Shown: positions 6,959-34,047, counted from the first letter of the stretch. The stretch: DNA of 64,000 nucleotides from a virus (IMGVR_UViG_3300037313_001148:26670-90669); one strand, 5' to 3'. The notes: generated by a model not told the origin, from the sequence alone. Made by a program: numbers and translations.

Positions 6959-8635
6959 TTGAGAAATCAAGGGGGTTTTTCTTTGAGCGTTGCAACTTTT
7001 CCGATCCCTGGCTCCTCTTACCATGATCTCGCCATCAAGGCTGAGCGGTGTCGGCGATCGCTCGCCTACTTCACGCGAACCTTCTGGGATGAGATTGTCC
7101 CCGAGAAACTAACCTGGAATTGGCACATGGATGCCGTGTGCGATCATCTCCAGGCTGTTTCCCAAGGATCAATACAACGACTTATAATCAATATTCCCCC
7201 TGGATCCGCGAAGTCTACGTTAGTAAGTGTGATGTGGCCTGCATGGGAATGGATCGACCGGCCGGGTGAGCAATCTCTTTTTGGTTCATATGACGAGAAG
7301 CTTGCCCTTCGTGACTCGGTGCGCTGCCGCAAGGTCTTCGATTCTGAGCGATACCGGACGATCTTCCAGCCGGACTGGAAGATGGCAAAAGACCAAAATG
7401 CGAAAGGTTTCTACACTAACACGGCCAACGGGAATCGTTACACGTTCGGTCTGAACTCCTCCGGCAAGATGGGCTGGCGCGGAAACAAGGTTGTCCTGGA
7501 CGATCCTAACGATATCAAGGCTCGGTTTGACACGCGGATCAAGGCGGATGCCTGGGACGTGTTCGCCAGCGTGCTTCAGACCCGCGTCAACGACCTGCCG
7601 ACCGCGAAATTTCTGATTGTCCAGCAGAGAACATCTTTTGATGATTTCACTGGCCGAATTCATGACATGGAATCCGACCCCGAAGTCATGGCGGTAATGG
7701 AGAAGATCGGCAAATGGGAAACGGTCGTGATTCCGGCCGAGTTCGACCCTTCCCGGCGGTTCTTCACGAGCATTGGTTGGACTGACCCTCGCAAGGAAGC
7801 GGGGGAGAACTTCTTCCCCAAAAAGTACCCCGACGAATCTCTCGAGGGAATGAGGCTAGTCCTTGGAGACGAAGGGTACGAGGGTCAGTTCAACCAATCC
7901 CCGGCTCCCGCCGGAGGGCAAAGATTATCGCGTGATCTCTTCTGCAAGTATAAGCGAGTTTCCGGCGACATCATCGAGCTTACCAACAAATTCGGCAACA
8001 AATCTATCATCAAGCTTGGATTATGCTGGTCGTTCGTCTCGGTAGATCTCGCCGCCTCTGAGAAGCAAACAGCCGACTACACCGCATTTTCGGTCTGGGC
8101 CGTCACGCCTACCTATGATATGATCCTTCTCAATGTTGTTAATGAAAGAATGGGAGAACCTAAGATCATTGAGAAGGCTATTGCACTACACGCCTTTACT
8201 GGATATAACGGGCGGAAGCATCTTGCCTTTGTCGTTGAAGACAACGGTTTAGGACTGCCGATTGCTCAGAGCATGGCCAAACATGGACTTCCGGTCATGC
8301 AAGTCCATATTCATAGGACTGACAAGCTTGTGCGGTCGGCAACCGCCGTGATTCGCGCCAATGCCGGCGGGATCTACCTTCCCGAAGACGGACCAGAGTA
8401 TCCCTGGAAAGAACCCTGGCTTCGTCAACACGAGCGATTCCCTGGAGACGAGCACGACGACATGGTGGATGCGACATCGCTAGCCGCATCGGCTCTCTTC
8501 GACATGGGAATCGCTGGTTTGCATGGCGGGGAGTTCCTGAAGCATTCAAAGAAGAGTGCTCACGAGGTAATGGAGCCTCAGAAACAGGAACTCCCCGCCG
8601 CGACCAAACAAAACAAAAGATTATTTGGCACATGA
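6959..8635 (+). CDS. terL: terminase large subunit
   Basis: RLIINIPPGSAKS Walker A, VVLDDP Walker B, C-terminal nuclease HDDMVDATS; start may be TTG 6983. Confidence 0.95.
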   Translation: MRNQGGFSLSVATFPIPGSSYHDLAIKAERCRRSLAYFTRTFWDEIVPEKLTWNWHMDAVCDHLQAVSQGSIQRLIINIPPGSAKSTLVSVMWPAWEWIDRPGEQSLFGSYDEKLALRDSVRCRKVFDSERYRTIFQPDWKMAKDQNAKGFYTNTANGNRYTFGLNSSGKMGWRGNKVVLDDPNDIKARFDTRIKADAWDVFASVLQTRVNDLPTAKFLIVQQRTSFDDFTGRIHDMESDPEVMAVMEKIGKWETVVIPAEFDPSRRFFTSIGWTDPRKEAGENFFPKKYPDESLEGMRLVLGDEGYEGQFNQSPAPAGGQRLSRDLFCKYKRVSGDIIELTNKFGNKSIIKLGLCWSFVSVDLAASEKQTADYTAFSVWAVTPTYDMILLNVVNERMGEPKIIEKAIALHAFTGYNGRKHLAFVVEDNGLGLPIAQSMAKHGLPVMQVHIHRTDKLVRSATAVIRANAGGIYLPEDGPEYPWKEPWLRQHERFPGDEHDDMVDATSLAASALFDMGIAGLHGGEFLKHSKKSAHEVMEPQKQELPAATKQNKRLFGT

Positions 8636-11266: not shown

Positions 11267-14200
11267 ATGGACGCGATCACATCAAGTGTTGTAGATACAA
11301 ATTCGCTCCATGAACAGCCTCAATCGCGGGCCGTAGCCGAAAGCGCCTTACTTGCGGCGGCGCAAGCCCTGCGCAATATCGCCGAGAACAAGAATCAAGA
11401 CCCTTACGGCCAAATCCTCTCCCAGCAAAAAGATTACTTGGTCCCACACCAATTCACTTACGCATCCGTTTGGAATTGGTATCAAAAATATTATTATAAT
11501 TACTTCGACGAATCTTTAATTAACTCTCAACAAAACTCTCTGGCCATGTGGAGGGATGGACTTACTTGTGAACTTCACTGGCATCGAACGCTGCCTACCA
11601 TGTCCCTGCCGTCCACGGTCGAAGTAGACGATGAGGACGATCAGGATCAGGTCAAGATCAAGAAACAAGCCCAGCAAATCATCGACAGACTTCCATATTT
11701 TCAAAATCTGAAACAACAACTCCTCCAGGCGATTTTCTTCGGCAAGAGCGGGTCACAGTTCCTCTACCACCACAAGAAGATTGCCGGCAAGGATCGGTTT
11801 ACCGTCCGGTCGCACATTCCCATCCAGGGCGATAAAATCGTTTATGGGTGGTCCGAAGGGAATGACGAGATCCCCGGAGTCTTTGTATATCGCACGTCGC
11901 CGATGTTCAAAGATCCGGAGATGAAAAAACATCTTCGATTTCTTGATAAAGGGCCGGCGTTCTTCCTGGAGAATCCGTATCACCGCGACCAGTTCATCAT
12001 CCACAATTTCAACCCGACCGATTCTGATTATTTATTTGAGTCTGAGAAAGCCCTGATGATCCACGGCCGGGGCATGCGTGATGCCCTGTACTGGACGTGG
12101 AACATGCGGGCCGAACTTCTCGGCTGGGATCTCAATGCCCTTCAGCGGGTCGGCGCGAATGGGATGTTGTATGCGTTCTTCCAATCAGGGGACGACGCCT
12201 CGAAAAATGCAGTTCTGGATGCATTGATGTCTCTAATTCAATATAACGTTGCCGCTTTTCCCAAGAATTTCGGCGACGGCTCCGGCGACATCATTCAGAG
12301 GATTGATCCGTCTCAAGTCGGCTACGACGTTCTCTATCAACTTATCACGCATCTAGAAGAGATCATGCGTAGGTGCTACCTGGGACAAAACCTCTCATCC
12401 CAGTCAGCACCGACCGGCCTCGGTAGCGGCGTGGCCGATCTTCAGGCTGGCACATTTCAGAACATCGTTCTGTTCGACGCCGGCTGTCTCTCTGAATGCA
12501 TCGACGACCAGTTATTTCAGAATATTATCAAATACAATCTATGGGAATACCACGGCAAGGTCTATCGAGGCTCGGACCTGCCATTCTCGATGCGGTACAA
12601 GATCCAAGTTGAGCGAGAGAATGTTAAAGAGTTGATTGATGCCGCCGCCACCCTGATTCAGATGGGCGTTCCGCTTGACGTTGAAGATCTTCGAGACAAG
12701 GCCGGCTTTGTGGCTCCGAAGACCAAGGCAACCACGGTAGCCATGCCTGGAGGGCAGTCAGGCGGCGTGGATAATCAACACGTTCTCACGTCAGAACACA
12801 AATCGGCACCCGGAAGCGGCGGTCAATCTCAGTCGCGGCCCGACACTCCCCTTTCTCCGTCGTCCTCTTTGCCCGCGAAGCGGGCAACTCAACCTGAGCA
12901 ATTTGCCGCCAACGAAACAACAGGCTATTATAACTTCACTCCATCCGAGCGGATCGGCTACGAGTTGGCGAACATGGGCGGGGATCTCGCTCTTGGCGGC
13001 TGGTATCACTCTTCGACCCGGCGGGCCTGGGTGTCGATTTCGCCTCACACGCCGATCGACAAGATTCGCCAGCTTGGCAACGCGCTCGAGCAAATCGTCG
13101 GCCCTGACAAGTGGAAGATCGTCGTCGAAACTCCGCCCTCCGGGCCTGGATGGCAAAAGGTTTCAACAGATGAATTTATCATCGAACCAGAATGGTTCTC
13201 AAAGGAGAACTGCGGGACTGGAGCGGGAGGATTCCAGTCAGGGAACACCTGCGCGAAGACGAGAAGCAACGAAGAAAATCGCTCGAGACTAAAGGACTTC
13301 TCCGGATGGCTTTCTCCCGAAGGGAAGCTCCTGATTCACGCTGGTTCTCACGGAAAGACCCTTCGTGATTACGGGGTGAACGTTTCGCCAAACCGCGCGT
13401 TGAACGAGGGTTATACATGGATGAATCAAAGTGGGAGCACGCTCTACGTCGAAGTTCATCATTCCAGGGTCAGCAAGGTCAAATCTTCTCTTGAAGACCT
13501 GCTTAACGAAAACGTCAAATCTGTAATCATCGAAGTTTTCGGAGATTCTGGAAAGAAAACTAAAGAATTTAACTTCTCGTTTAAAAATGGATTCTTGCAT
13601 GACGATCTGGAAAAGTTTGCCAAGGATCGCGGCGAGGATCCTGGAGTAATGATCGCCCTGACTCTTCATCCCGACCTTGCCCGCCAGCTTGCTCTGAAGG
13701 ACGGCGAAGACCCCTCAGATTTCCACATCACCCTAGCTTACCTAGGTCGCGTATCTTCGATCGGCCAAGAGGCGGTTGAGATGGTGCACAAAGTTTGCGA
13801 GCTTCTGGCATTAAATTCTGAGCCTCTACGCGGCTCCGTGGGGGGCGTTGGACGTTTTCCGGCCTCAGATTCGTCGGACGGCAAGGATGTCGTATACGCG
13901 GGCGTGGACGTTCCTCGATTGACCGATTTTCGGGCCGAACTGACCCATGTTCTCGGCCTGGCCAAAGTCCCCTACAAGGCCAACCACGGATTTACGCCTC
14001 ACATCACGCTTAAATACATCGACAAACAAGAAGACATGCCAGTCTCCCGGATCGGCTCGTTCCCGGCTGAGTTCCTTTCCCTTGATCTTTACGTGGGGGA
14101 CGAGGTTACTTCCTACTCTTTCTCGGAGTATAGCGGTCCTGGCCGGGAGAATTTCGAGCCTAATCCTTGCGGGGATACGAAGGGCGGTTTTCAGCCTCAC

Positions 14201-14827
14201 AACACCTGTGCTAAGAGTGGTGGCGATTCTCGCAAAAACCCCCCAAAGCTTGACCCTCAGCATCCGTCGTTCAACGAAGAAGACGAGTCTGTGTTCGCTT
14301 TGGAAGAAAAGTCCGAAGCGTGGTTTAACGATCTCGGTAAAGATGAAAAACATGCAATAAGAGAATATATTCATTCAATGGATTATAAGGAGGTTGGCAA
14401 GAGGTTTCGATCCGGGGACACGACCAAAGAGGACATAGCTTTGGTCGATGCGATCAAATCGGCTCCGATCACAGACAAGATTGCGTGGCGTGGCCTGGAC
14501 AGCGAATTCGGAGGAACCCGGAATGAACTAAAAGACAAGATGAGGAATTCCATTGGACAGGTTCTCGAGTGGAAAGCCCCGACTTCCGCCTCTCTGTCCG
14601 AAAGAATTGCCGGGACATTCGGTGACGTACTATTTAAGATTGTAAGCAATAATGGAAGATATATAAACCAGGCAAGCCCGACATTATACAAAGAAGAGAA
14701 AGAGGTAATGTTCCTCCCCGGTTCCAAGTTTAAGGTGACTGACGTTAGAGAGGATGTAGTTTTTGACAATGATATGTTTGGTTCTAAAAATTTTGTTGTT
14801 TTACTGAAGGATGTTACCGATGAATGA
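11267..14827 (+). CDS. portal protein (Mu gp29/DUF935-like) fused to unknown domains, a 2H phosphoesterase and an ADP-ribosyltransferase
   Basis: N-terminal ~490 aa portal-like (GQNLSS...GLGSGVADLQ) placed after terL; two HITL motifs (13724, 13999); C-terminal WRG...PTSAS...EEKEV R-S-E ART motif. Confidence 0.85.
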   Translation: MDAITSSVVDTNSLHEQPQSRAVAESALLAAAQALRNIAENKNQDPYGQILSQQKDYLVPHQFTYASVWNWYQKYYYNYFDESLINSQQNSLAMWRDGLTCELHWHRTLPTMSLPSTVEVDDEDDQDQVKIKKQAQQIIDRLPYFQNLKQQLLQAIFFGKSGSQFLYHHKKIAGKDRFTVRSHIPIQGDKIVYGWSEGNDEIPGVFVYRTSPMFKDPEMKKHLRFLDKGPAFFLENPYHRDQFIIHNFNPTDSDYLFESEKALMIHGRGMRDALYWTWNMRAELLGWDLNALQRVGANGMLYAFFQSGDDASKNAVLDALMSLIQYNVAAFPKNFGDGSGDIIQRIDPSQVGYDVLYQLITHLEEIMRRCYLGQNLSSQSAPTGLGSGVADLQAGTFQNIVLFDAGCLSECIDDQLFQNIIKYNLWEYHGKVYRGSDLPFSMRYKIQVERENVKELIDAAATLIQMGVPLDVEDLRDKAGFVAPKTKATTVAMPGGQSGGVDNQHVLTSEHKSAPGSGGQSQSRPDTPLSPSSSLPAKRATQPEQFAANETTGYYNFTPSERIGYELANMGGDLALGGWYHSSTRRAWVSISPHTPIDKIRQLGNALEQIVGPDKWKIVVETPPSGPGWQKVSTDEFIIEPEWFSKENCGTGAGGFQSGNTCAKTRSNEENRSRLKDFSGWLSPEGKLLIHAGSHGKTLRDYGVNVSPNRALNEGYTWMNQSGSTLYVEVHHSRVSKVKSSLEDLLNENVKSVIIEVFGDSGKKTKEFNFSFKNGFLHDDLEKFAKDRGEDPGVMIALTLHPDLARQLALKDGEDPSDFHITLAYLGRVSSIGQEAVEMVHKVCELLALNSEPLRGSVGGVGRFPASDSSDGKDVVYAGVDVPRLTDFRAELTHVLGLAKVPYKANHGFTPHITLKYIDKQEDMPVSRIGSFPAEFLSLDLYVGDEVTSYSFSEYSGPGRENFEPNPCGDTKGGFQPHNTCAKSGGDSRKNPPKLDPQHPSFNEEDESVFALEEKSEAWFNDLGKDEKHAIREYIHSMDYKEVGKRFRSGDTTKEDIALVDAIKSAPITDKIAWRGLDSEFGGTRNELKDKMRNSIGQVLEWKAPTSASLSERIAGTFGDVLFKIVSNNGRYINQASPTLYKEEKEVMFLPGSKFKVTDVREDVVFDNDMFGSKNFVVLLKDVTDE
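12840..12887 (+). repeat. hairpin element copy 3
   Basis: ccgacactcccctttctccgtcgtcctct followed by ttgcccgc-GAA-gcgggcaa; in the portal linker. Confidence 0.9.
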
Positions 14828-15587
14828 TAACAGGCCTAGTGCCCGGCTGTTCTTTGGATCATGGGAAGAGTTTGGATTTGTCGGAACCGGGAAGGCTGAC
14901 AGCGAGGGTCCGGAGAAATTCGAGCCTGATCCATGCGGAGACGCTTCAGGCGGATTCCAAAAAGGGAACACCTGTGCCAAGGGCGGCAATCCGTCTGGCA
15001 AGCCTGCAAAGTCTCCTGCCGGCTGGGGTGACGTAGGCGGCGACGACGACCACGCCGAATCTCTCGCAAAGCGAATGAAAAATATCGACAAATTCTCACT
15101 AATCGCCGCCAAGAACGGCTTTTACTTCATGAAGAAGGGAAGCGGGTTCTACGAAGCCTACGACGCCGCACAGGGAACCGGCAAAGCGGCGACCGCCATT
15201 GCATCGTTCTACGCCAATAAAAATGCGATCATATTTAATGAAAAGAATGAATTCTACTCCGATCCCAAGGGGTACATGGAGAGAATGGGAGATACCGGCT
15301 GGTTCAGTACGAACCATGAAGATCATGTCATTGTTCACGAAATTGGACACGGCAAGCACTACAACACGGTTGGCGAGAAGCGATATCGCGAGATTAAGGC
15401 GTCGGTCATTCCCGACGACGTGCTTCCCCTGGTAAAATCGGAAGTGAGCCGTTATGCCGGCGGTAAACAGGGAAACCCGCTCGAGGTTGTGGCGGAAATG
15501 TACACGGCCATGAACCTGACCGGCAAGAAATTCAGCAATACTCTCATGAATTACTATAAATCACTAGGTGGCCCTGAATCCGATTGA
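14820..15587 (+). CDS. zincin metallopeptidase-like head-associated toxin domain protein
   Basis: HEIGH plus SRYA...NPLEVVAE; preceded by the C-x12-C motif; ATG 14820 overlaps the portal stop. Confidence 0.75.
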   Translation: MNDNRPSARLFFGSWEEFGFVGTGKADSEGPEKFEPDPCGDASGGFQKGNTCAKGGNPSGKPAKSPAGWGDVGGDDDHAESLAKRMKNIDKFSLIAAKNGFYFMKKGSGFYEAYDAAQGTGKAATAIASFYANKNAIIFNEKNEFYSDPKGYMERMGDTGWFSTNHEDHVIVHEIGHGKHYNTVGEKRYREIKASVIPDDVLPLVKSEVSRYAGGKQGNPLEVVAEMYTAMNLTGKKFSNTLMNYYKSLGGPESD

Positions 15588-15611
15588 CGATCAATCCCAG
15601 GACATGAACCT

Positions 15612-15848
15612 ATGACAATCTTTCCTCAATGCATGGTTTGCCGGCACCTTGAAAAAGGCAAGCCAATGCATTGCAAAGCGTTCCCGCGAGAAATTCCTGA
15701 CGAGATCGTTTTCAACGAATTCGATCACAGAAAGGAATTCCCTGGCGATCATGGGATTCAGTTTGAGCCGTTGCCTGGCAAACATTCTCCATTCGAGGAA
15801 TCTTCTAATGAAAAACCTTCTCGCCCTTATTCTTCTGATCGTGGCTAG
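15612..15848 (+). CDS. small Cys/His protein, probable immunity partner of the metallopeptidase
   Basis: CxxCxH...CKAFP...IP...H...GDHGIQFE pattern recalled as typically following phage head-associated peptidase domains. Confidence 0.65.
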   Translation: MTIFPQCMVCRHLEKGKPMHCKAFPREIPDEIVFNEFDHRKEFPGDHGIQFEPLPGKHSPFEESSNEKPSRPYSSDRG

Positions 15849-16008
15849 CGGCTGTTTCGTCGAAGAAACGAAGATCGAACCGCCCAAGCTTCCTGCACCT
15901 GACCAGCCGCGCCGGCGTTGCCCTGGGCCTCGCTGTCCCAAGGAACTCGGAAAGTGTCCAGTTCATGACGAAAAGGGAAACCTCCGGTCTTCCGGCGAAA
16001 TCAGTTAA
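15808..16008 (+). CDS. small Pro/Cys-rich lipoprotein
   Basis: MKNLLALILLIVASG-C signal with lipobox. Confidence 0.6.
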   Translation: MKNLLALILLIVASGCFVEETKIEPPKLPAPDQPRRRCPGPRCPKELGKCPVHDEKGNLRSSGEIS

Positions 16009-16012
16009 TCGC

Positions 16013-16294
16013 ATGTTAAAGACTTTAATCCTTCTATTGTTCCTCTCGGTTACGGGATGCACTCAGGATCAACCGGCCATTCCTCCGGTTGATCCTGTTC
16101 GCGTTCCCCATCCCTATTCATCGCCAAATCCCCGCCCTTTCCGTTGCCTCTGCGGTGATGGCTGGTGCACTGGAAACCCCTCTGTTTGGTGCCGGTGCCA
16201 GAATCGAATCTGTGTTTGCCCCGGATCTCACTATCCCTCTCCCGCTCCGCGCCCATACCGTCCCTGTCCCTCTCCGCTTCCCCGACGAAAATAA
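16013..16294 (+). CDS. small Pro/Cys-rich lipoprotein
   Basis: MLKTLILLLFLSVTG-C lipobox; CLC, CRC, CVC motifs. Confidence 0.6.
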   Translation: MLKTLILLLFLSVTGCTQDQPAIPPVDPVRVPHPYSSPNPRPFRCLCGDGWCTGNPSVWCRCQNRICVCPGSHYPSPAPRPYRPCPSPLPRRK

Positions 16295-16309
16295 TTGGGA
16301 TATTTAAAA

Positions 16310-19045
16310 ATGAAATTATCTCAACTCTTCAACTATCTATCTACGGAACCCATTCAATGCAAGACGACGGCAAGCCGAAAGACCCAGAGAAGCCTCGAGA
16401 CGTACTCCAGGGCGGCGAACAGCCCGACCCATATCCGGACGATGAGGAGATCCTTGATCGCGTCTGGAAGCGGATTGCCGAATCCAGAAACGTTCGCCAA
16501 CCAAAAGGATCCTGACAACTGCGGAACCGGCGCGGGCGGTTTCAAGCCCGGTAACACCTGCGCCAAAGGCAAAGGTTCCAAGCGGTCATTTGGTAAAACC
16601 CAACGCCCCTTCGGTGTCGCCCGCGATTACCAAAAAGAAGAAACATTCCTAAATAACACCAAACGTATCTTCGGTAAGCCGTTACCCGAAGAAGACGCAA
16701 TGTCTCTGGCCGGCATCCTTGACGGGATGTCGGTCAGATTCAGTATGTATGACGAATATTCAGGTAAAAAGTTTCTCAAACACATCGAAGTTGAAGGAAC
16801 TGATCTAGATACCCAGACATATACGCATCGAAAAATCGGTATCGATCATCGTGGTAAAAAATACATTTACAACGCAGTATTCGTTATCGATGACCCGAAC
16901 GCGCGAGGCAAAGGAATCGGCATCGAAGTTCTCGGCCGGCAAATCGAGAACGCGATCGAGCAGGGTTTCGTCTACATGGAGACGGATGCCGCCCGGCTCG
17001 ACCACGAAGATCCTAAACGTCAAATGATCGGTTACAAGGTATGGCCCAAATACGGATACGACGGAGAAATTCCCTGGGAAGAGATCGAAGACTGGAATCC
17101 TGACCTAGAAATCCCAGAAAAGTTCAGAGACATGAAAATGATCTCTGAACTTTATATGTCCAAGGAAGGCCGTGACTGGTGGGAGAAGTACGGAGGGACG
17201 GTCACTCTTCGATTCGACCTGACGGAAGGCAGTTTAAGCCGTCAAATCTGGGATGCGTACCTGGAAGAGCGTCAGAATCGGGCGCCCAAAGAGACAAGCC
17301 CCGCCATCTCCTCAGAAGAACGCCGCAAAGACGAGGAAAAAGTTCTCCAGGCACGCGCCGATATGCTCATGTATAACATGAGAAGCCCAAACTTCCTGAA
17401 ATCGATCCGCTCCGACCCTCGGACCCTCAAATCAGTTGTCCGAGAATTCCAGACCGTAAGCCACCTGATCCCGGCTGACATTGCCGACGATATTGAAGAC
17501 ATCCTAGGTCTCAAGAATTACCCCGACTCCTACTCTCGTAATCCTTGCGGCGACAGCGAAGGCGGATTCGAGAAGGGTAACACCTGCGCCGCCTCAAACT
17601 CCGGTGCGGCCGGAGGCCGCACGGTGACGACGGAGGAAAGGGCAGTGCGGGAGGGCGAACATATTAAAAGACAAGCGGATCTAATTAGAAAACTCGCGCC
17701 CAATCTCGGGGTGGGCATGAAAGGTGGCAAGTTCTTTCAGGCGGTTTTCGATCGCGAAGCCGACGACGTGATTGCCGCCTTTTACCCCGAGAAACGGACG
17801 ATCTTTTTCAATGATCTTCATCCGACATTTTGGAGTGATCCGGCCTCGGAGATGGCGCGGATTCACGACACGGGATTTCTCGGCTCGCCCGACCCCAACC
17901 ACATCGTTTATCACGAAATCGGCCACGCCAAACATTACGAGAGTGCCGGCCACGAATTCTACAACGAGATGCGGACAGAGCCGGTCGATCCAAAATATCG
18001 CGATATTATTAAAGAGCATGTATCACAATACGCAACCATGAACCCCCTGGAATTTGTTGCGGAAGTTTACGCGGGCATGATTTCAGGCATCGATTACAAT
18101 GAACGTGACCCGATGATTATGATTTACTACGACATGCTTGACGGGCCTTCCGCCGAATTTCAAGATCAAGAATCATACATCAAAACATTCAATTTCCTTC
18201 TTGAACAATTCGCCAAGTCGGCCGACAATTGCGGTGACGGCGCCGGCGGATTTAAACCAGGCAATACCTGTCAGCGCGGCAATGGCCGATTCAAACCGCC
18301 GGCCGGATCGTCAAAATCAGCCGCCAACACCCCTCCTTCTCCGTCGTCCCATTCGCGGCCGAAGGCCGCGACTTCATCCAAGTCGATTACTAAACTGCTT
18401 TCCTCTCCTCACGTCAAATCTCAAGCCAAAACTCTGGCGGGGGGAGCGGAACCTTCAATGCAGACCGAGCTTTCCTCTCGCGCGGTGACAGCCTTGAAGT
18501 TTTACAAGCCGGTAACAGGCGACAAGCGAAAATCGGCCAACGAAAAAGAACAGGAAGTGGCCTCAGCCTTGGGTGGCGAATGGCTACCAAACCACGAGCC
18601 GGCTGACGCCTTGATTCCTGTGGGGAAGCGTAAGATCGGCCTCGAGATCAAGACGATGTTCGAGAACGAGAAGGGAGAGATCCGGATCGACGATGGCGCC
18701 ATGAAGAACAAGGTCAACTGGGTTCGTCAAAAGATGTGTGATCGTTTTGACATGGTTGTCATCAATCATCAGACCGGAGAGATGTGGTATCGTCGTGGAA
18801 TCGGCAATTTCTCAATCAATTCTATGTACAAAGTTAAAGACTATAACGAACTCAAGAAATTGATCGAAGCGAAGCCGAGTAGCCTTCCTGCATCCGCCCA
18901 GTACAAGGAAGATACCGAGTATCATCGCGCGTTGACTCACGGTCCCTCTTACGCCCGCCTTCTCGAGCGTGCCGCCGCCGCCGACGCTGCCAAAAAGGCT
19001 CGTCGGGACAAGTCTCGAGCTAAAGCTAAGGAAGCAATCGTATGA
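16310..19045 (+). CDS. multidomain toxin-like polyprotein: GNAT-fold domain, zincin, PD-(D/E)XK nuclease
   Basis: RGKGIG...GYKVWPKYGY (GNAT); HEIGH...NPLEFVAE (paralog of 14820); E...EPADA...GLEIKT (REase fold); three C-x12-C motifs. Confidence 0.8.
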   Translation: MKLSQLFNYLSTEPIQCKTTASRKTQRSLETYSRAANSPTHIRTMRRSLIASGSGLPNPETFANQKDPDNCGTGAGGFKPGNTCAKGKGSKRSFGKTQRPFGVARDYQKEETFLNNTKRIFGKPLPEEDAMSLAGILDGMSVRFSMYDEYSGKKFLKHIEVEGTDLDTQTYTHRKIGIDHRGKKYIYNAVFVIDDPNARGKGIGIEVLGRQIENAIEQGFVYMETDAARLDHEDPKRQMIGYKVWPKYGYDGEIPWEEIEDWNPDLEIPEKFRDMKMISELYMSKEGRDWWEKYGGTVTLRFDLTEGSLSRQIWDAYLEERQNRAPKETSPAISSEERRKDEEKVLQARADMLMYNMRSPNFLKSIRSDPRTLKSVVREFQTVSHLIPADIADDIEDILGLKNYPDSYSRNPCGDSEGGFEKGNTCAASNSGAAGGRTVTTEERAVREGEHIKRQADLIRKLAPNLGVGMKGGKFFQAVFDREADDVIAAFYPEKRTIFFNDLHPTFWSDPASEMARIHDTGFLGSPDPNHIVYHEIGHAKHYESAGHEFYNEMRTEPVDPKYRDIIKEHVSQYATMNPLEFVAEVYAGMISGIDYNERDPMIMIYYDMLDGPSAEFQDQESYIKTFNFLLEQFAKSADNCGDGAGGFKPGNTCQRGNGRFKPPAGSSKSAANTPPSPSSHSRPKAATSSKSITKLLSSPHVKSQAKTLAGGAEPSMQTELSSRAVTALKFYKPVTGDKRKSANEKEQEVASALGGEWLPNHEPADALIPVGKRKIGLEIKTMFENEKGEIRIDDGAMKNKVNWVRQKMCDRFDMVVINHQTGEMWYRRGIGNFSINSMYKVKDYNELKKLIEAKPSSLPASAQYKEDTEYHRALTHGPSYARLLERAAAADAAKKARRDKSRAKAKEAIV
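17604..17650 (-). repeat. hairpin element, minus-strand copy
   Basis: Reverse complement ccgcactgccctttcctccgtcgtcacc followed by gtgcggcc-TCC-ggccgcac (atypical loop). Confidence 0.7.
18324..18371 (+). repeat. hairpin element copy 4
   Basis: ccaacacccctccttctccgtcgtcccat followed by tcgcggcc-GAA-ggccgcga. Confidence 0.9.
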
Positions 19046-19353
19046 GCACAAATATTGTATTTGATAATCACTACAACGTGGCTGTTGCTTCGTCAGGCGG
19101 CTGGATGGATTTCACGGATTGGATTAGTTCGCTGCCTGTCCATGAATTTCCCAATCTTTGTCACTTAATCAAGTATGGATGGACCGGAAACCTCCGTTCG
19201 CTCGCGACAGAGATTGACCACGCTCTCCGCAATTATCCTCCGAGGAAGATTGGAGTACGATCGACAACTCAGGGAATTCTCCAACAGATCAAATCTCAAG
19301 AACATAAAGCTCAACTAGTAATGGTCGGAGGGGGAATTGTTCCTCCGCGTTGA
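19042..19353 (+). CDS. probable immunity protein for the nuclease domain
   Basis: Small ORF coupled (ATGA) to the toxin-like C-terminus. Confidence 0.5.
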   Translation: MSTNIVFDNHYNVAVASSGGWMDFTDWISSLPVHEFPNLCHLIKYGWTGNLRSLATEIDHALRNYPPRKIGVRSTTQGILQQIKSQEHKAQLVMVGGGIVPPR

Positions 19354-19483: not shown

Positions 19484-20986
19484 ATGGCAACGGACACACT
19501 TCCCGCCTCTCGCGTCACACCGCCGCGCCTCGAAGATCCACGTCATTACGTGCGGGTTCCGCGCGTGCCGATCCTCGACCGCCATCTCCGTCAAATCACT
19601 AATCCGGAGACTGGAGAAACTCGGGTCACGGCTGTCGATAAAGACCAATTGCAAGTTATCTGCAATAATTCAAATAATCGTGCCAATCGAGGCGATCTCG
19701 CCCTGATTACGATCGGGCACACCGACCGCAGAAAGCCCGAGCACGAACAACCACCATTGGTCGGCTATCTCAAGGATTTCATTGTCGGCCAGCACAACGG
19801 CGAGCCGACAATTCTTGCCGATCTCTACATTAAAGCAGAAGAGAATCAGAGAGAAGTTCTGGCCAACTTCCCTCGCCGTTCGGTCGAAGTCTGGAATAAG
19901 ACGCTTCCAAATGCATATATCGATATTCTTGCACTTCTTCGACGCGCGCCCGAACGTGACCTTGGACTGGTCACTCATCACTCGAAGCCATATGATCTAG
20001 AATACTTTGAGTGTTCATGTGATAAACAGGAGAAAACCACGATGCCGTTGCCTCCCTCGCCTGATTCCGACGTTGATCCGACCGAAGGGAAGCCGGCCTC
20101 TCCTTCCGATCCTGATCCGAATCCGGATCCGGCCAACCCGCCGCAAGACAACCCGGCAGAGCCTAACGAATCGGAGCCGAGCGAAGAGGCTGTGACTCGG
20201 TTTGCGGACGCCATCGCCGATCGGATGGTGGGCCGACTAATCGAACATGATGATTTCCATCAAAAGATTGCCCAGGCGGCTGCCAAGTTTCACGCCAGCA
20301 ATCAAGAAATGATTGATGCGATCATCATGCGAATTTCTGAACTCCTAGAAACGGCGTCCGAGCAGTCCGAAGGATCGCCGCCGAAAAACGAACCGGAAAA
20401 ACTAGAAGGCGGAACGCCGATGGCTTCGCCTCCTTCTGGAACGAATACTTATGTCCCTTCGTCTGGAAATGAAGAGGTTGAAAAAATGAGCAAGGAAACA
20501 GACAATCAGATTGCTGTTCTGACCAAGCAGGTTGAGGATCAGCAGAAGCTAATCAATCAACTCCTTGATGCAAATAAGGCCCAGCAAGAGCAGTTCTCGA
20601 AGAATTCTCGTCGGATCCGGCTCGAGGGGATTCGTCGAAGCGGTGTCGATGTGGATGTGGACGGCCAGCTTGAGCTTATGGAAAAGCTCGATGACTCCAC
20701 CTTTGAGGCGTTCGCGAAGAACATCGAAACCAATTTCCCGAAGATCCCTGTCAACAACGCTCGCCTTGAGACGGCGTATTTCTCCATGATTCCGGAGAAT
20801 CCGGCGGCAGAAACATTGGACAGCGAACTGACCAAGCAGGAGTTCCTTGACGGTGCGGTGGAGAAGTTCCGCAAGGAAAACAATATCCCTATCGCCAATT
20901 CGACTGACGGTGGAACGGAACTCCTGAATCAGTATTTCGAGAAGGCCGACCGGAGCAAGTACGGCGTCAAGAAGAAGACCGCCTAA
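19484..20986 (+). CDS. prohead protease/scaffold fusion (Mu gpI-like)
   Basis: IGHT and RRSVE putative catalytic motifs; Pro/Asp linker; coiled-coil C-terminus; precedes the capsid genes. Confidence 0.8.
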   Translation: MATDTLPASRVTPPRLEDPRHYVRVPRVPILDRHLRQITNPETGETRVTAVDKDQLQVICNNSNNRANRGDLALITIGHTDRRKPEHEQPPLVGYLKDFIVGQHNGEPTILADLYIKAEENQREVLANFPRRSVEVWNKTLPNAYIDILALLRRAPERDLGLVTHHSKPYDLEYFECSCDKQEKTTMPLPPSPDSDVDPTEGKPASPSDPDPNPDPANPPQDNPAEPNESEPSEEAVTRFADAIADRMVGRLIEHDDFHQKIAQAAAKFHASNQEMIDAIIMRISELLETASEQSEGSPPKNEPEKLEGGTPMASPPSGTNTYVPSSGNEEVEKMSKETDNQIAVLTKQVEDQQKLINQLLDANKAQQEQFSKNSRRIRLEGIRRSGVDVDVDGQLELMEKLDDSTFEAFAKNIETNFPKIPVNNARLETAYFSMIPENPAAETLDSELTKQEFLDGAVEKFRKENNIPIANSTDGGTELLNQYFEKADRSKYGVKKKTA

Positions 20987-21500: not shown

Positions 21501-22574
21501 ATGGCTTATCAGCCTTACGCGGGTTATCCGTCTGGAACTAACACATATGTTCCTAATTTTGCCGCTTCTCAATCGCTAGTTGTCGGCTATAGTCGCCAGC
21601 CGAACACATTTCAGCTTCCTCGCTATACTCAATATGTGATGGCGAAGAACAATACCGGATGGTATTTCGTCTGGACTTCGCGTCAAGCCGCGAGAATCCT
21701 TACGTCGGACGACCGAGAGCATGTCTGGTCTGACGGGGACGCCGCGCCGACCGGGATCAACAACGTGGATTCCGGACAGTGGTATTTGTTCGGAACCACA
21801 CGGCGAGCTTATCCGTTTATGCTTGGCCAGATGGCTGTTGAGCAGGCGGAATACCCCCTGATCGCGGCCGTCGCGGGTGATGCGGCTCAACAGTGCATGA
21901 CCGCGCGAACGTTGCTCACCTACAATGCTCTTTCAGGCGCGTCGTGGGGGAGTAATACTGCCGCCGTCAACGGCACGATCCTTGGCGCCGGCCAGGGCTG
22001 GAACACGGGACAGGACGGCCTCGGAACCAATCCCGGACCCAATATCAAGAAATCATTCCAGTATGCCGATAAGATTATCAATCTTCAGACTATCGGCGTT
22101 GTTCAGCCTCGCGACACAACTGTCGTGGTTAATCCCACCACGGCTATGGCGATGGCGGCGTCCGGGGAAATCCAGGATTATATCAAGCAGTCTCCATTTG
22201 CTCTTGCCCAGCTTCGGGGTGACGTGCCGAACCAGAACGGCAGATGGAACCTGCCGGATACACTCTACGGCCACCCGATCGCCGTTGAAGACGCGGTGCG
22301 AGTATCAACGAACAAGGGTGCGTCCTCCACGACGATTGGATACGTCGTTCCTGACGGCGAAGCCTACATGCTGGCCCGCCAAGGCGAGCTTGAAGGTCTC
22401 CAGGGAACTCGGTCGTATTCAACTGTTCAAATCTTCTTCTATCAAGATGAAATGACAGTTGAAACGATGTACGACGCGAACAATCGTCGGTATTCGGGCC
22501 GGGTCGTTTCCAACTTCTCGCCGGTCGTTGTCTCGACGATTAGCGGGTTCAAGTTCACGAGTTGCCTGGTCTGA
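21501..22574 (+). CDS. major capsid protein
   Basis: 357 aa, canonical position, AGGAG SD, followed by a hairpin. Confidence 0.8.
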   Translation: MAYQPYAGYPSGTNTYVPNFAASQSLVVGYSRQPNTFQLPRYTQYVMAKNNTGWYFVWTSRQAARILTSDDREHVWSDGDAAPTGINNVDSGQWYLFGTTRRAYPFMLGQMAVEQAEYPLIAAVAGDAAQQCMTARTLLTYNALSGASWGSNTAAVNGTILGAGQGWNTGQDGLGTNPGPNIKKSFQYADKIINLQTIGVVQPRDTTVVVNPTTAMAMAASGEIQDYIKQSPFALAQLRGDVPNQNGRWNLPDTLYGHPIAVEDAVRVSTNKGASSTTIGYVVPDGEAYMLARQGELEGLQGTRSYSTVQIFFYQDEMTVETMYDANNRRYSGRVVSNFSPVVVSTISGFKFTSCLV

Positions 22575-30217: not shown

Positions 30218-32395
30218 ATGCCCACCACTACACGGGTTCCACTCCTGGATACCGCCCTGGCCACGAGCGCGGTCAGCACACTTATCGTATCCGCCGGGCC
30301 TGGCCAGGTGCCGACTACACCAAGCACGCTGACCTACAATGCCTCAACGCAGACCCTTTCGGTCGGCGCGGTGGCGGCGGTGCCGAAAATCAACACGGGG
30401 ACCGAGACCGGAACACTCGCCAATCCTAACCCACAAACCCTACTTAAACATCAGACAATTGATCCAGCGCGGGGACGATGGGATATTTGTGCATACGGCG
30501 ATTTTTTTTCCAACGGCTCTTCGCAGGTATGGGATCCAGGTCTGTTTATTGGTTATAATCCAAACCGTGATTTTACAGACCCCGGTCTAAACAGTGAGCC
30601 GTCTTTTACCTACAGTCTCGAAGCTTATTATTACGAAGCTTCGTCAGGAAAAACGACCGCCGAAGCCTACGTCGAGTTTCTCTCGCCTGCAAACGATGGG
30701 GTCAACCGTTTTCAGCGGAGGCCCTGGAGTTTCACCCTTGACCGGGCATCGGGAGCGACACGGTTCGGCATCGAACTCGGCCCAGTAGTGGCTGGATTCG
30801 CCTCATCGTTCACGATCGCCGCAGGCCCGGCAACCGGAGGTTCCTTCTCGATCGTGAATGTCGTTGCCGGAGCAACCGCAGCAGCCTCGGTGATTCAGTT
30901 GCTCTCCCCGACCGTCTCAATCGGATCGCACACGCTCAGCGATGTGGACGGCGGCTCCTCCGGAACGCTGATCTTCGGCAACGACAACCAGCCAACCCGC
31001 TCGCTCAAAGGCAATAACACAACGCTAGAGGTTGGCAGTTGGTTTACCTCGCTGCGTTACAAGACTCCTGCCGGAGTTGTTATTCAGTCAGACACAATCG
31101 ACGAAATCGATGTATTTACATTCAATGCAAATGTTCTCCACACAAACCATAAAATTTTCCAGATTCAGCACGTTGGCAGCACTCTAGCATACGTTGATAT
31201 TGCTGGCCTGACGGCAACGAACCTAACCAGCAGTGGCACACTAACTGTCGCAGGTGGTTCGACATTTTCGGGACTGATTAATGCGGCCAACTCAGGTTCG
31301 GACGGATCTTATAACGAGGTTTTTCGCGCCCAAATCGCGGGCAATCTCGGAGTAGGTAGTTGGCGAAATTCAATCGAGTCGTCACTTTCGTCAACGCCAT
31401 CCCTTTCGGGCGTGCAAATCAAAATTGCGACCAGCCAGACCACGCAAGAGGTTGTCGCCGCATTCAAGGGCGATCTCTCGACATCTCTTGAAGGATCGCT
31501 CCTGGTAAGTGGCCCGACAACGGTAGTCGGAGGCAGCCTCACTGTCTCGGCTGCCGATGGCACAAGTGTAGGAACGCTGATCTTCGGAAACGACAGCCAG
31601 CCAACCCGATCGCTCACGGGCAACAACACGACGCTGGAAGTTGGCAGTTGGTTCACTTCGCTGCGATACAAGACCCCTGCCGGAGTTACGGTCCAGGCGG
31701 ATACAATTGACGAAATCGACGTATTTACATTCAATGCAAATGTTCTCCACACAAACCATAAAATTTTCCAGATTCAGCACGTTGGCAGCACTCTAGCATA
31801 CGTTGATATTATTGGACTGACAGCGGCGAACCTGACCAGTAGTGGCACGCTAACTGTCGCGGGTAGTTCTACGTTTTCCGGCCTGATCGATACCGACACG
31901 TCGGGCGCGGACGGAGCCTATAACGAAGTCTTTCGCGCCCAAATCGCGGGCAACCTCGGAACAGGAAACTGGCGGAATTCGATCGAGTCGTCATGCTCTT
32001 CGACGGCAGTCAACTCGGGCATGCGGATCAAGATCGCGACCAGCCAGACGACTCAGGATATCGTTGCCACGTTCAAGGGCGATCTCTCGACGACGCTGGC
32101 CGGGTCGCTTTCGGTGGGCGGCGGGGCGAGCTTGAGCAAAATCCTCCCGGCCTCGGCGATCCTCGATTTCCCCTCGATCGCGGCGGGAGGACAGCAGGAA
32201 CTTACCATCTCCGTCACCGGCGCGGCCGCCGGTGCGATGGTATCGCTCGGTCCCCCTTCCGTCCTGGAGGCGGGTGTGATCGTGGGGGCCCGCGTTTCCG
32301 CCTCGGGCGTCGTGACGGTGTGCGCCGCCAATATCACCGGATCGCCGATCGACCCCGCCTCGGCCACCTACAAGGTCGTGGTATTCAACCCGTGA
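30218..32395 (+). CDS. tail fibre with internal 203-aa duplication
   Basis: Ser/Thr/Gly-rich; repeats start at 30962 and 31571. Confidence 0.75.
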   Translation: MPTTTRVPLLDTALATSAVSTLIVSAGPGQVPTTPSTLTYNASTQTLSVGAVAAVPKINTGTETGTLANPNPQTLLKHQTIDPARGRWDICAYGDFFSNGSSQVWDPGLFIGYNPNRDFTDPGLNSEPSFTYSLEAYYYEASSGKTTAEAYVEFLSPANDGVNRFQRRPWSFTLDRASGATRFGIELGPVVAGFASSFTIAAGPATGGSFSIVNVVAGATAAASVIQLLSPTVSIGSHTLSDVDGGSSGTLIFGNDNQPTRSLKGNNTTLEVGSWFTSLRYKTPAGVVIQSDTIDEIDVFTFNANVLHTNHKIFQIQHVGSTLAYVDIAGLTATNLTSSGTLTVAGGSTFSGLINAANSGSDGSYNEVFRAQIAGNLGVGSWRNSIESSLSSTPSLSGVQIKIATSQTTQEVVAAFKGDLSTSLEGSLLVSGPTTVVGGSLTVSAADGTSVGTLIFGNDSQPTRSLTGNNTTLEVGSWFTSLRYKTPAGVTVQADTIDEIDVFTFNANVLHTNHKIFQIQHVGSTLAYVDIIGLTAANLTSSGTLTVAGSSTFSGLIDTDTSGADGAYNEVFRAQIAGNLGTGNWRNSIESSCSSTAVNSGMRIKIATSQTTQDIVATFKGDLSTTLAGSLSVGGGASLSKILPASAILDFPSIAAGGQQELTISVTGAAAGAMVSLGPPSVLEAGVIVGARVSASGVVTVCAANITGSPIDPASATYKVVVFNP
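30940..32110 (+). repeat. 609-bp tandem duplication within the tail fibre
   Basis: ggaacgctgatcttcgg at 30962 and 31571; long near-identical runs (e.g. ...gcaaatgttctcca...cacaaaccataaaattttccagattcagcacgttggcagcactctagcatacgttgatatt). Confidence 0.9.
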
Positions 32396-32402
32396 GGTTT
32401 TC

Positions 32403-32684
32403 ATGAGCGAATTCGCATTTTATCTCGGAATCCTCGTTGGTCTTTGCCTCGGATTGGCCTACAAGGTTAGACGATCCGTCGCGTCCCATCTCTGGCCGCG
32501 GAGCACATTGCAAGGCCGCTGGTCGCACACGCTGGACTCGTCTTACGCTACGCCAGTTTTCACGTACACCACCGACGAACACTATATCAAGTCGGGCGAT
32601 GGAGGCTTCAGTTCGTCCCCCTACGTCGAGTTCCTCTCGCCGCCGCTCGACCGGCGTGTTTCTGGTGACGTATTCAACCCGTGA
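32403..32684 (+). pseudogene. small chimeric ORF made of tail-fibre fragments
   Basis: cctacgtcgagtt(t/c)ctctcgcc shared with ~30666; ends gtattcaacccgtgagg like the fibre 3' end. Confidence 0.55.
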
Positions 32685-32691
32685 GGCGGAA

Positions 32692-33459
32692 ATGCCCGAA
32701 GTCAAAGTAATCGATCTTGCCCACGTCAATGTAGACGGCGTGGTCGCCGGCAGCGTGGTGGACGTGCTCGACAACTATCGCCCGATCGAGGGCATCAAAG
32801 ATCTCCTGTTCGCGGCGGTCCAGCGATGGTCCGACGATCGCGAGCAAGCCCACGAGACGGCCGTCGCTTCACTCCGCGAGTGTCACTGCAAGGAATGCGA
32901 CGACCTGAAGGCCACACACGCGACGGCCTTGCAAGATACCTACGGCAAACATAGGGCGGAACTCGACGAAGCGGCACAGGCCCACGCCTCGAACCTCCAG
33001 GCGGCGACTGATAGCCATGCGAAGGCGATGGCCTCACTGAAGGAGCAACTCCAGGCTGACCGCCGTGCCGAAACGGACGAACTACAGGCTCAGATCACTG
33101 AACTCCACAAGGTGATTGACGAACAAAAGGCTGTGACGGGCAAGCATCAGACGGCACTCGACGAAGCGGCGCAGGCTCACACCGAAGCGATCCAAGCGAT
33201 CGCCGATAGCCACTCAGTCGCCCTTGCCACGCTCAAGGAGCAACTCCAGGCCGACCACCGCGCTGAAACTGACGGACTGCGTTCGCAAATCGCCGAACTC
33301 CTTAAAGTGATCGACGAGCAGAAGACCCTGATCGAGACGCTTGGCGGCACCGAGCTTGGGCAACAGATGGCCCGCGAGAAGCGATGCCGGGAACTGCGTG
33401 AGACGATCGCCCGGCTCCAGGCGGAACATGACGCGATGGCCGAACCGCAAGGAGCATAA
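32692..33459 (+). CDS. coiled-coil protein with a 65-aa internal repeat
   Basis: ctcgacgaagcggc(a/g)caggc at ~32962 and ~33157; probable ATG 32692. Confidence 0.7.
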   Translation: MPEVKVIDLAHVNVDGVVAGSVVDVLDNYRPIEGIKDLLFAAVQRWSDDREQAHETAVASLRECHCKECDDLKATHATALQDTYGKHRAELDEAAQAHASNLQAATDSHAKAMASLKEQLQADRRAETDELQAQITELHKVIDEQKAVTGKHQTALDEAAQAHTEAIQAIADSHSVALATLKEQLQADHRAETDGLRSQIAELLKVIDEQKTLIETLGGTELGQQMAREKRCRELRETIARLQAEHDAMAEPQGA

Positions 33460-33462
33460 TCG

Positions 33463-34047
33463 ATGGCCGACACCACCCTCGTCATTGTGTATCCCACGGG
33501 CGTGAACCTCTACACTCAGATCGTGGCGCCGGACAACACGGTCTGGAACGGGTTGAATTACGTCGCTCTCTCGGTGGCATCATGGGCGACATTTGCGACT
33601 TCGACGCTCGAGACGCCAGCCTCGAGCGGAGTGTACGTGTGTCAGTTCCCCGTCAGTTCTCCGGCCGGTAACTATAAGTGGAGAACATATCTACGTGCGG
33701 GCGGATCTCCAGTTTCAAGCGACGTTTGTGTAGGAACAGGAAGTGGATTCTGGGACGGAACAACGTTTGGCTCCGTGAACTCAATTACCGATAAAGCTGG
33801 ATTCGCTTTATCATCAACCGGAATCGACTCGATCGTTATTGAGGCTGCCGCCGGAAGCCAACCTAATATCAATGCACGCCAGGGGATCGCCCTGGTTTTT
33901 AATGCGGCGTGCTACGGACTTCTCAATGGAGTCGGCAGCCCTTCGCCAGTCCAGATTCTCAATCCGGCCGGCACGGTCGTCAGAGCGACAGTAACAACTG
34001 ACTCAGAGAACAATCGAACAAACGTAGAATTCAATAATCTTCCTTGA
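33463..34047 (+). CDS. virion structural protein
   Basis: GGAG SD; Thr/Ser/Gly-rich beta-type sequence. Confidence 0.6.
   Translation: MADTTLVIVYPTGVNLYTQIVAPDNTVWNGLNYVALSVASWATFATSTLETPASSGVYVCQFPVSSPAGNYKWRTYLRAGGSPVSSDVCVGTGSGFWDGTTFGSVNSITDKAGFALSSTGIDSIVIEAAAGSQPNINARQGIALVFNAACYGLLNGVGSPSPVQILNPAGTVVRATVTTDSENNRTNVEFNNLP

Follow-up and report, generated by a model that had tools for sequence, protein, structure and literature searches.

A two-cysteine motif precedes the modules of a portal-fused cargo array in an IMG/VR virus and in related phages

Phage-type polyvalent proteins, which combine several unrelated enzyme domains in one polypeptide, are encoded among head genes and are predicted to be packaged and injected; the fusion of a 2H phosphoesterase to the portal or to MuF is described explicitly, and a zincin is proposed as a processing enzyme (Iyer 2017, PMC5512222). 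Effectors fused to the portal, MuF, or the prohead protease, in proteins of 2–15 domains, are also described (Iyer et al., 2017, PMC5512222; Iyer et al., 2022, PMC9503650), and in the MuF polymorphic toxins a head-protein anchor is followed by variable enzyme or toxin domains, with small immunity-like genes sometimes encoded behind them (Jamet et al., 2017, PMC5576092). Here we analyze a cargo array in a virus, IMGVR_UViG_3300037313_001148:26670-90669; this stretch of 64,000 nucleotides (‘the window’) comes from an IMG/VR virus record of 90.7 kb, the completeness of which is estimated at 78%. The array occupies three large open reading frames (ORFs), a portal-cargo fusion (P0001), a short cargo protein (P0002), and a cargo polyprotein (P0003), in which six copies of a two-cysteine motif, C-G-x3-G-G-F-x3-N-T-C, stand at the boundaries between modules.

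Like the polyvalent proteins, the array contains 2H and nuclease domains, together with putative ADP-ribosyltransferase (ART), zincin, and GNAT domains; it also has two of the features by which they are recognized, that is, at least two disparate activities in one polypeptide (portal, 2H, and ART-like module in P0001; GNAT fold, putative zincin, and nuclease in P0003) and a portal-terminase head neighborhood (large terminase (TerL), portal, protease/scaffold, and adaptor; Table 1). Since effector fusions to the portal, MuF, and the prohead protease are already in print, the architecture of the array is known. In contrast to those fusions, the window lacks a MuF domain (PF04233 has no match in P0001–P0003 at E ≤ 0.1), and the anchor is dispensable, as the split forms described below demonstrate. 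In the literature and family libraries searched, neither the two-cysteine header nor its combination with a cut site specific to the lineage appears to have been described; the main text of Iyer 2017 (PMC5512222), as distinct from its supplementary domain lists, mentions no cysteine motif, GGF, or punctuating header.

The six copies were recorded in a preliminary description made from the DNA alone, which placed them in three ORFs, each before a different module. A degenerate DNA pattern recovers exactly these six matches in the window and none in 100 shuffles of it; all are on the + strand, in frame, and inside the three large ORFs (residues 649-662 and 968-981 of P0001, 42-55 of P0002, and 76-89, 418-431, and 646-659 of P0003). 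The modules that follow the copies are, in order, an orphan region and then the 2H domain, the ART-like module, a putative zincin, a GNAT-fold module, a second putative zincin, and a PD-(D/E)xK nuclease. The DNA of the copies is 62-79% identical, their flanks are at the random level, and codons differ in 47% of the same-residue codon pairs; because synonymous codons vary and the flanks are random, selection acts on the peptide and not on the DNA. We reject a recombination junction at the DNA level on the grounds of the same variation of codons between copies with fixed residues.

We scanned IMG/VR with the same degenerate pattern. At least 119 stretches carry the motif, with nearly all matches in frame in ORFs of several hundred residues, and the consensus is [N/D]-C-G-T-G-[A/S]-G-G-F-[K/Q]-[P/E]-G-N-T-C-[A/G], followed by a Gly/Ser-rich stretch. 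Among 1.84 billion representative proteins, a 30-column profile of the motif retrieves 706 clusters at E ≤ 1e-3 (122 at E ≤ 1e-10); the proteins reach 4085 residues and carry up to six or seven copies each. When approximately 390 distinct instances are realigned, there are no substitutions at the two Cys, the Gly-Gly, the Phe, or the Asn, and 352 of the 390 have Asn or Asp at position −1; a minority of the homologues has a three-residue insert that yields a C-x15-C variant, CGANxxGGGGF. The motif has no counterpart among Pfam matches or in a string search of a paper library. Against 50,697 phage records, neither megablast with the region nor tblastn with P0003 or a 30-residue motif peptide gives a match, with the caveat that the low-complexity filter may hide the peptide; a word-index search for homologues gives four matches for P0003 and, for P0002, only its own fragment.

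In bacterial genome contigs, a relaxed DNA pattern matches 32 ORFs, about 15 of which contain true copies, mostly from Planctomycetota and Verrucomicrobiota and some from Pseudomonadota; one of these is a portal-motif-nuclease fusion encoded by Singulisphaera acidiphila DSM 18658, a bacterium available in culture. The chromosome of Singulisphaera sp. PoT (L133:6386-7519) encodes a 378-residue protein with the motif at residue 75 and a C-terminal DddA-like double-stranded-DNA deaminase toxin domain (PF14428, E 3e-9). Two further loci (L136 and L157) are one 23.7-kb contig assigned to an archaeon metagenome-assembled genome (MAG); it encodes an 1821-residue Mu-type portal fusion and a motif-led 1907-residue protein with six ART-PolyVal stretches, and, as the contig is phage-like, the archaeal label may be a binning artefact. 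The relaxed pattern also catches proteins of 70-100 residues that are nearly all Cys and Gly and end in a hydrophobic tail (e.g., CGGGFGGFGGGNCCC then IIWII), from Bacillota and Clostridia MAGs (L124, L126, L128, L130, L131, L135, L145, L149-L153); these are unrelated to the phage motif.

The position of the motif relative to the modules is consistent across the family. The preliminary description would have withdrawn its interpretation if the motif were not associated with domain boundaries in homologues; the association is present. Of the 106 related ORFs with a closed 3' end, 105 extend for 95 residues or more beyond the last copy, and, where Pfam recognizes the neighbors, the motif is interdomain and the next domain starts 20-40 residues on (e.g., motif at 16 then ART-PolyVal at 38-161; motif at 783 then PARP at 819-935; S78 protease at 305-466 then motif at 492). 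A Gly-rich spacer comes after the motif. At the other end, the first copy can be located 13-50 residues from the upstream stop, and many database proteins have Met and 2-15 residues before the motif. In the split forms (L103, L070, L077, and L063), the ORF immediately after a motif-free portal encodes cargo and opens with a short leader and then the motif. These observations support the motif as a portable element tied to module boundaries; from its position at the module edge and the split forms, it behaves as the header of a portable cassette (motif, spacer, and module).

The anchors and the modules are both diverse. The segment upstream of the first copy is a portal in at least 53 of 104 related motif ORFs, from three Pfam portal families (lambda-family portal, 31; HK97-type portal, 19; Mu-type portal, 3); in others it is an S78 prohead protease (7) or MuF (1). 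Portal fusion is thus one common arrangement of the cargo, and the initial view that this fusion and the number of domains are unusual is not supported, with proteins of 2-15 domains on record (Iyer 2017, 2022). The profile search that the preliminary description proposed for listing cargo yields a diverse, effector-like repertoire: ART families, GNATs, MuF, Zeta toxin, Fic, topoisomerase IB, ParB, 2H, XkdF-type protease, DddA-like deaminase, PD-(D/E)xK nucleases, and many unannotated modules. MuF can lie downstream of the motif in relatives, where it is cargo-like. A topoisomerase IB catalytic core of eukaryotic type (PF01028, best E 7e-20) occurs as cargo in three of the proteins P0010-P0159. 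We found no universal partner gene in the neighborhood; the most frequent family that is neither cargo nor a shadow ORF occurs in 33 of 119 loci among the matches listed, the loci being fragments.

An alternative is that the modules are late-expressed toxins or enzymes whose targets are in the cell that makes the phage, or which lysis sets free, the route proposed for the MuF polymorphic toxins; the motif would then be no more than a conserved junction for shuffling; the toxin-type modules in the family (DddA-like deaminase, Zeta toxin, and nucleases), the likely immunity partner, and the clear shuffling of modules between lineages are all compatible with this. We nevertheless consider this alternative very unlikely: modules fused covalently to prohead proteases, and to portals of three families, would be located within the capsid, and the variation in codons at fixed residues locates the constraint elsewhere than in the DNA.

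The cysteines themselves suggest a chemistry. The motif holds about half of all Cys in the motif proteins; Cys amounts to 0.45% elsewhere in them, and 28 of 141 have no Cys outside the motifs. An invariant Cys pair in Cys-poor proteins suggests a loop closed by a disulfide or a metal. The pair might instead act between chains as a reversible tether, that is, motifs on different chains, including the twelve portal-borne copies, would be joined by a disulfide or a shared metal in the oxidizing virion, so as to keep cargo close to the portal, and be released in the reducing cytoplasm of the host. The depletion of Cys outside the motif would suit such a tether, as would the coexistence of portal-borne and free copies in this genome and the two Cys per motif, too few for a metal site of its own; however, several phages have a motif-free portal and carry the motif in free cargo alone, and we regard a tether as improbable.

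A second element precedes the motif in this lineage. The pattern E.F[AES][KRAPN] occurs nine times in the window ORFs of at least 150 residues, and all nine are in the array and the protease/scaffold protein P0007 (P0001, 4; P0002, 1; P0003, 2; P0007, 2); the roughly 75 other window ORFs of this size have none. An E-x-F site is located 2-8 residues upstream of five of the six motif copies, the sixth having D-S-Y-S-R, and P0007 contains four E-x-F-type sites between 20588 and 20944. The relatives P0135, P0020, and P0046 keep the E-x-F sites in place, including those at two boundaries without a Cys motif, that is, after the portal linker and before the 2H domain. In other lineages, different conserved residues precede the same Cys motif. 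From these sequence patterns, the E-x-F element is probably the cut site of the head protease of this lineage, shared with its scaffold.

We lean, with modest confidence, toward a reading in which the array is polyvalent head cargo, its cassettes are cut at E-x-F, and the motif is a per-module tag that stays on the N-terminus for retention or ejection. A cassette would comprise a short, lineage-specific cut site (here E-x-F-[A/S/E]-x), the universal two-cysteine motif ([N/D]-C-G-T-G-A-G-G-F-x-x-G-N-T-C), the Gly-rich spacer, and an enzyme module; in this lineage, the portal fusion carries one part of the array and separate ORFs carry two parts. Cargo would be brought into the procapsid by its tether to the portal or would arrive there in free chains of cassettes. 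The Mu-like protease in P0007 would then cut the E-x-F sites, as in its own scaffold, to leave the motif and spacer as the new N-terminus of each enzyme; the Cys motif would not be the cut site and would remain on the product. As a handling tag for each module, it might serve retention in the capsid or exit via the portal and tail, with the invariant Cys pair probably closing a small loop by a disulfide or a metal ion, possibly switched between the oxidizing virion and the reducing cytoplasm.

The most serious competitor to this tag is cleavage at the motif itself: either a protease with requirements on both flanks or the chain itself, through Asn/Asp-Cys chemistry, would make a cut at or inside the motif, and the sole role of the motif would be to separate modules and remove short N-terminal propeptides. 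There is one copy per module boundary, and both the Asn or Asp at −1 in 352 of 390 instances and the invariant Cys and Asn suit chemistry at that bond. Cleavage at the motif stays in serious contention because cargo fused to the portal needs release rather than loading and because N-terminal copies keep a short, conserved, propeptide-like strand upstream. However, the two conserved boundaries mentioned above (post-portal and pre-2H) have E-x-F and no Cys motif, so cutting seems to be independent of the latter; the same motif is found alongside different protease families (S78, XkdF-type, and Mu-like; for the proteases of the lambda-portal group, Pfam gives no type), protease sites are rarely invariant over 14 residues, and no catalytic fold surrounds the motif. 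We judge it unlikely that the motif is the processing site. One copy per module, its extreme N-terminal position in free cargo, and its independence of the portal family, the protease family, and the zincin fit a handling tag better than the site of a single protease.

Several points weigh against the tag with cutting at E-x-F. We infer the packaging and the processing of the motif-bearing proteins from context. A loading tag would be superfluous for cargo that is already part of the portal chain, but the copy nearest the portal is conserved as strongly as the rest; this conservation agrees better with release, ejection, or cleavage as the function than with loading. The conserved strand upstream of N-terminal copies would also be expected of a protease site read on both sides. 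The invariance of the motif at some positions stems in part from a search pattern that itself fixed them, for which realignment with a hidden Markov model (HMM) corrects only in part. The motif profile has zero matches among PDB sequences, so no solved structure contains the motif; in the AlphaFold2 (AF2) model of P0002, the motif region has a predicted local distance difference test (pLDDT) value <40 and is undocked on the zincin, which decides nothing.

Two known kinds of short element provide a comparison for a tag. T4 Alt and the T4 internal proteins carry a capsid-targeting sequence that is cut by gp21. There, as proposed for the array, the packaged and injected enzymes, an ART among them, come after a short N-terminal element that adjoins a head-protease site; however, the T4 targeting peptide is lost at the cut, whereas the motif is C-terminal to the presumed cut and would be retained by the cargo. 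The two elements are unrelated in sequence, and the one described here recurs within polyproteins. By analogy, the motif may work in a similar way to a T4-type capsid-targeting sequence without belonging to that class. Polymorphic toxins have marker motifs (VENN in CdiA, DPxGL in Rhs, and MIX in effectors of the type VI secretion system); these, too, are short conserved elements at the start of interchangeable modules that can be used to mine effectors. They differ from the phage motif in that its delivery vehicle would be the capsid, it stands before every module, and it has the chemistry of a Cys pair and a Gly-rich loop.

The domain assignments in the preliminary description stand to different degrees. 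The 2H phosphoesterase that it placed between the first two modules is clear (PF13563, E 5e-10, 40.1 bits vs a cut-off of 27), with H-I-T occurring twice in the translation. The ART is below the cut-off for R-S-E ADP-ribosyltransferases (ADPrib_exo_Tox, PF03496, E 9e-4, 19.0 bits vs 23.4); with a local HMM, it groups with 66 modules of ART type from motif proteins or loci, and Pfam-positive ARTs occur among the downstream modules of related loci. For the C-terminal module of P0003, the residues E53, P70, D72, E85, and K87 (E...PxD...ExK) are invariant in the six sequences of alignment A6, and the local sets contain 12 related modules; this pattern points to a PD-(D/E)xK nuclease. The orphan ‘GWLSPEG’ region has no relative in the local sets and no Pfam or PHROG match.

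The GNAT assignment is based on structure; Pfam has no match to this module. An AF2 model from a 24-sequence alignment has a pLDDT of 89.9, and all inspected Foldseek matches, including the top ranks, are GNATs or other acetyl-CoA-binding enzymes; the best is Naa50 (E 3.5e-4), with low TM values of 0.3-0.45. The acetyl-CoA loop, R/Q-x-x-G-x-G/A, is R-G-K-G-I-G in the window copy; many relatives are without it, so part of the family may be non-catalytic. The local sets contain 52 copies in 36 proteins or loci, with up to four per protein. Some copies are located upstream of the motif or in motif-free ORFs (L009, L016, and L112; P0050 and P0130).

In the two putative zincins, HExxH and a downstream Glu (H176, E177, H180, and E225) are invariant in 14 aligned sequences. 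Only residues 150-258 of P0002 are confident in its AF2 model; Foldseek finds nothing at E ≤ 0.001, and the fold matches the catalytic center of anthrax lethal factor weakly (Z 5.0, root-mean-square deviation 4.2, 89 residues aligned). A zincin is present in about 25 of about 270 motif proteins or loci; with only about a tenth having one, we reject the zincin as the dedicated processing enzyme.

The order of the head genes is TerL, portal fusion, cargo ORFs, protease/scaffold, major capsid protein (MCP)-like gene, and Mu gp36-like adaptor (Table 1); with its location between the portal and the protease/scaffold, the array fills the slot held by MuF in Mu. P0001 has 1186 residues and its Portal_Mu match ends at residue 480, so that, as first described, the portal reads on into about 700 extra residues. 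The local HMM for the small post-portal domain matches only the related P0135 and P0020, at the equivalent position (about 530-640). P0003 likely starts at the ATG at 16310, as originally assigned; for P0002 the originally assigned ATG at 14820 has an alternative at 14811. A frameshift that joins P0001 to P0002 is rejected, with the P0002 frame closed by a stop at 14805-14807 and no slippery site after it. The N-terminal half of P0007 matches PF10123 clusters in the ESM Atlas (feature score 0.94, structure TM 0.62-0.63), and the remainder looks like a scaffold; the next large ORF, the MCP-like gene, is without a family match.

Three small ORFs separate P0002 from P0003, among them a lipoprotein gene (P0006) that was overlooked in the preliminary description. 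That description suggested two small immunity-like genes, one of which, P0005, is retained: a homologue (31% identical) directly follows the nuclease-bearing portal fusion in S. acidiphila, which is one independent case, and a predicted complex of the nuclease module with P0005 lends weak support: it scores 0.56, against 0.00 for the best of 3 controls, at least 37% of the contacts are shared between runs, and the pLDDT of the partner is ≥80. Of 80 solved complexes, 58 attain the mark used for such predictions, as do 2 of 110 mismatched pairs; scores ≤0.60 at the mark include only 7 of the 80 solved complexes and both mismatches. An inhibitor or immunity role for P0005 is plausible. The other gene, P0004, is unlikely to confer immunity; the sequences related to it form the N-terminal ends of larger ORFs, located downstream, in L068 and L093.

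Table 1. Features of the cargo array and of the adjacent head genes, in window coordinates
Feature	Position	Strand	Remarks
Large terminase (TerL)	6959-8635
P0001, portal-cargo fusion ORF, 1186 residues	11267-14827	+
Mu-family portal domain, P0001 residues 94-480	11546-12706	+	PF06074, E 5.2e-28, 98.8 bits vs cut-off 23.9
E-Q-F-A-A site after portal linker, no Cys motif	12896-12910	+	kept in P0135 as E-H-F-A-A
Small post-portal domain, P0001 residues 558-651	12938-13219	+	local HMM
Motif copy 1 (CGTGAGGFQSGNTC)	13211-13252	+	E-W-F-S-K 2 residues upstream, 13190-13204
Orphan region (‘GWLSPEG’)	13253-13609	+	no relative in the local sets
E-K-F-A-K site before 2H domain, no Cys motif	13610-13624	+	P0135 has E-S-F-A-R there
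2H phosphoesterase, P0001 residues 813-923	13703-14035	+	PF13563, PF02834, TIGR02258, PDB 2fyh
Motif copy 2 (CGDTKGGFQPHNTC)	14168-14209	+	E-N-F-E-P at 14147-14161
ART-like module, P0001 residues 1014-1163	14306-14755	+	PF03496, phrog_595, phrog_21789, XopAI weak
P0002, 258-residue ORF overlapping P0001 stop	14811-15587	+	leader, motif copy 3, Gly/Pro spacer, zincin
Motif copy 3, in P0002	14934-14975	+	E-K-F-E-P at 14913-14927
Zincin of P0002	15219-15575	+
P0004, small CxxC...HC protein	15612-15848	+	phrog_33375
P0006, Pro/Cys-rich lipoprotein, lipobox LSVTGC	15965-16294	+	weak Rz-like spanin match phrog_456, E 0.003
P0003, ~910-residue, three-module cargo polyprotein	16310-19045	+	ORF open from 16295
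Motif copy 4 (CGTGAGGFKPGNTC)	16520-16561	+	E-T-F-A-N at 16487-16501
GNAT-fold module, P0003 residues 125-326	16667-17272	+	AF2 and Foldseek
Motif copy 5 (CGDSEGGFEKGNTC)	17546-17587	+	D-S-Y-S-R at 17525-17539
Second zincin, P0003 residues 500-618	17792-18148	+	36% identical to P0002 zincin
Motif copy 6 (CGDGAGGFKPGNTC)	18230-18271	+	E-Q-F-A-K at 18203-18217
PD-(D/E)xK-type nuclease module, P0003 residues 726-893	18470-18973	+	alignment A6
P0005, 103 residues, candidate inhibitor/immunity partner of nuclease	19042-19353	+
P0007, 500 residues, Mu-like prohead protease (N-terminal half) fused to scaffold	19484-20986	+
Mu gp36-like adaptor	22677 (start)

Two further observations concern the rest of the window. 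The nonapeptide PSGTNTYVP is common to P0007 (residues 317-325, 20432-20458) and the N-terminus of the MCP-like protein (residues 10-18, 21528-21554), and the two coding sequences agree at 22 of 27 bases; the MCP-like copy is followed by N-F-A-A-S, which resembles the E-x-F-[A/S] sites. The nonapeptide may be the mark of an N-terminal propeptide cut or a shared docking peptide. The GC content is 0.60 at 32001-34000, a segment that spans the ORF at 32437-33459, vs about 0.50 elsewhere in the window.

To our knowledge, the manner in which tailed phages select, hold, and eject cargo is understood for few models, that is, the T4 targeting sequence, the P22 and T7 ejection proteins, and the N4 virion RNA polymerase. 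Here, hundreds of protein clusters share a near-invariant 14-residue element, which borders the modules on their N-terminal side, whatever the portal or protease family; it is a concrete target for mutations that distinguish loading from release, its profile already lists effector modules, many of them unannotated, and it is a possible handle with which to package foreign proteins. The presence of the motif in the portal fusion of the cultured S. acidiphila DSM 18658 makes experiments conceivable. We raise, with considerable doubt, the possibility that the two-cysteine motif is a general address label for capsid-carried, injected phage proteins, across unrelated portals and proteases. If so, one profile would list injected phage effectors, foreign proteins would be loadable into capsids, and the motif would be the capsid-cargo counterpart of the markers of secretion-system effectors.

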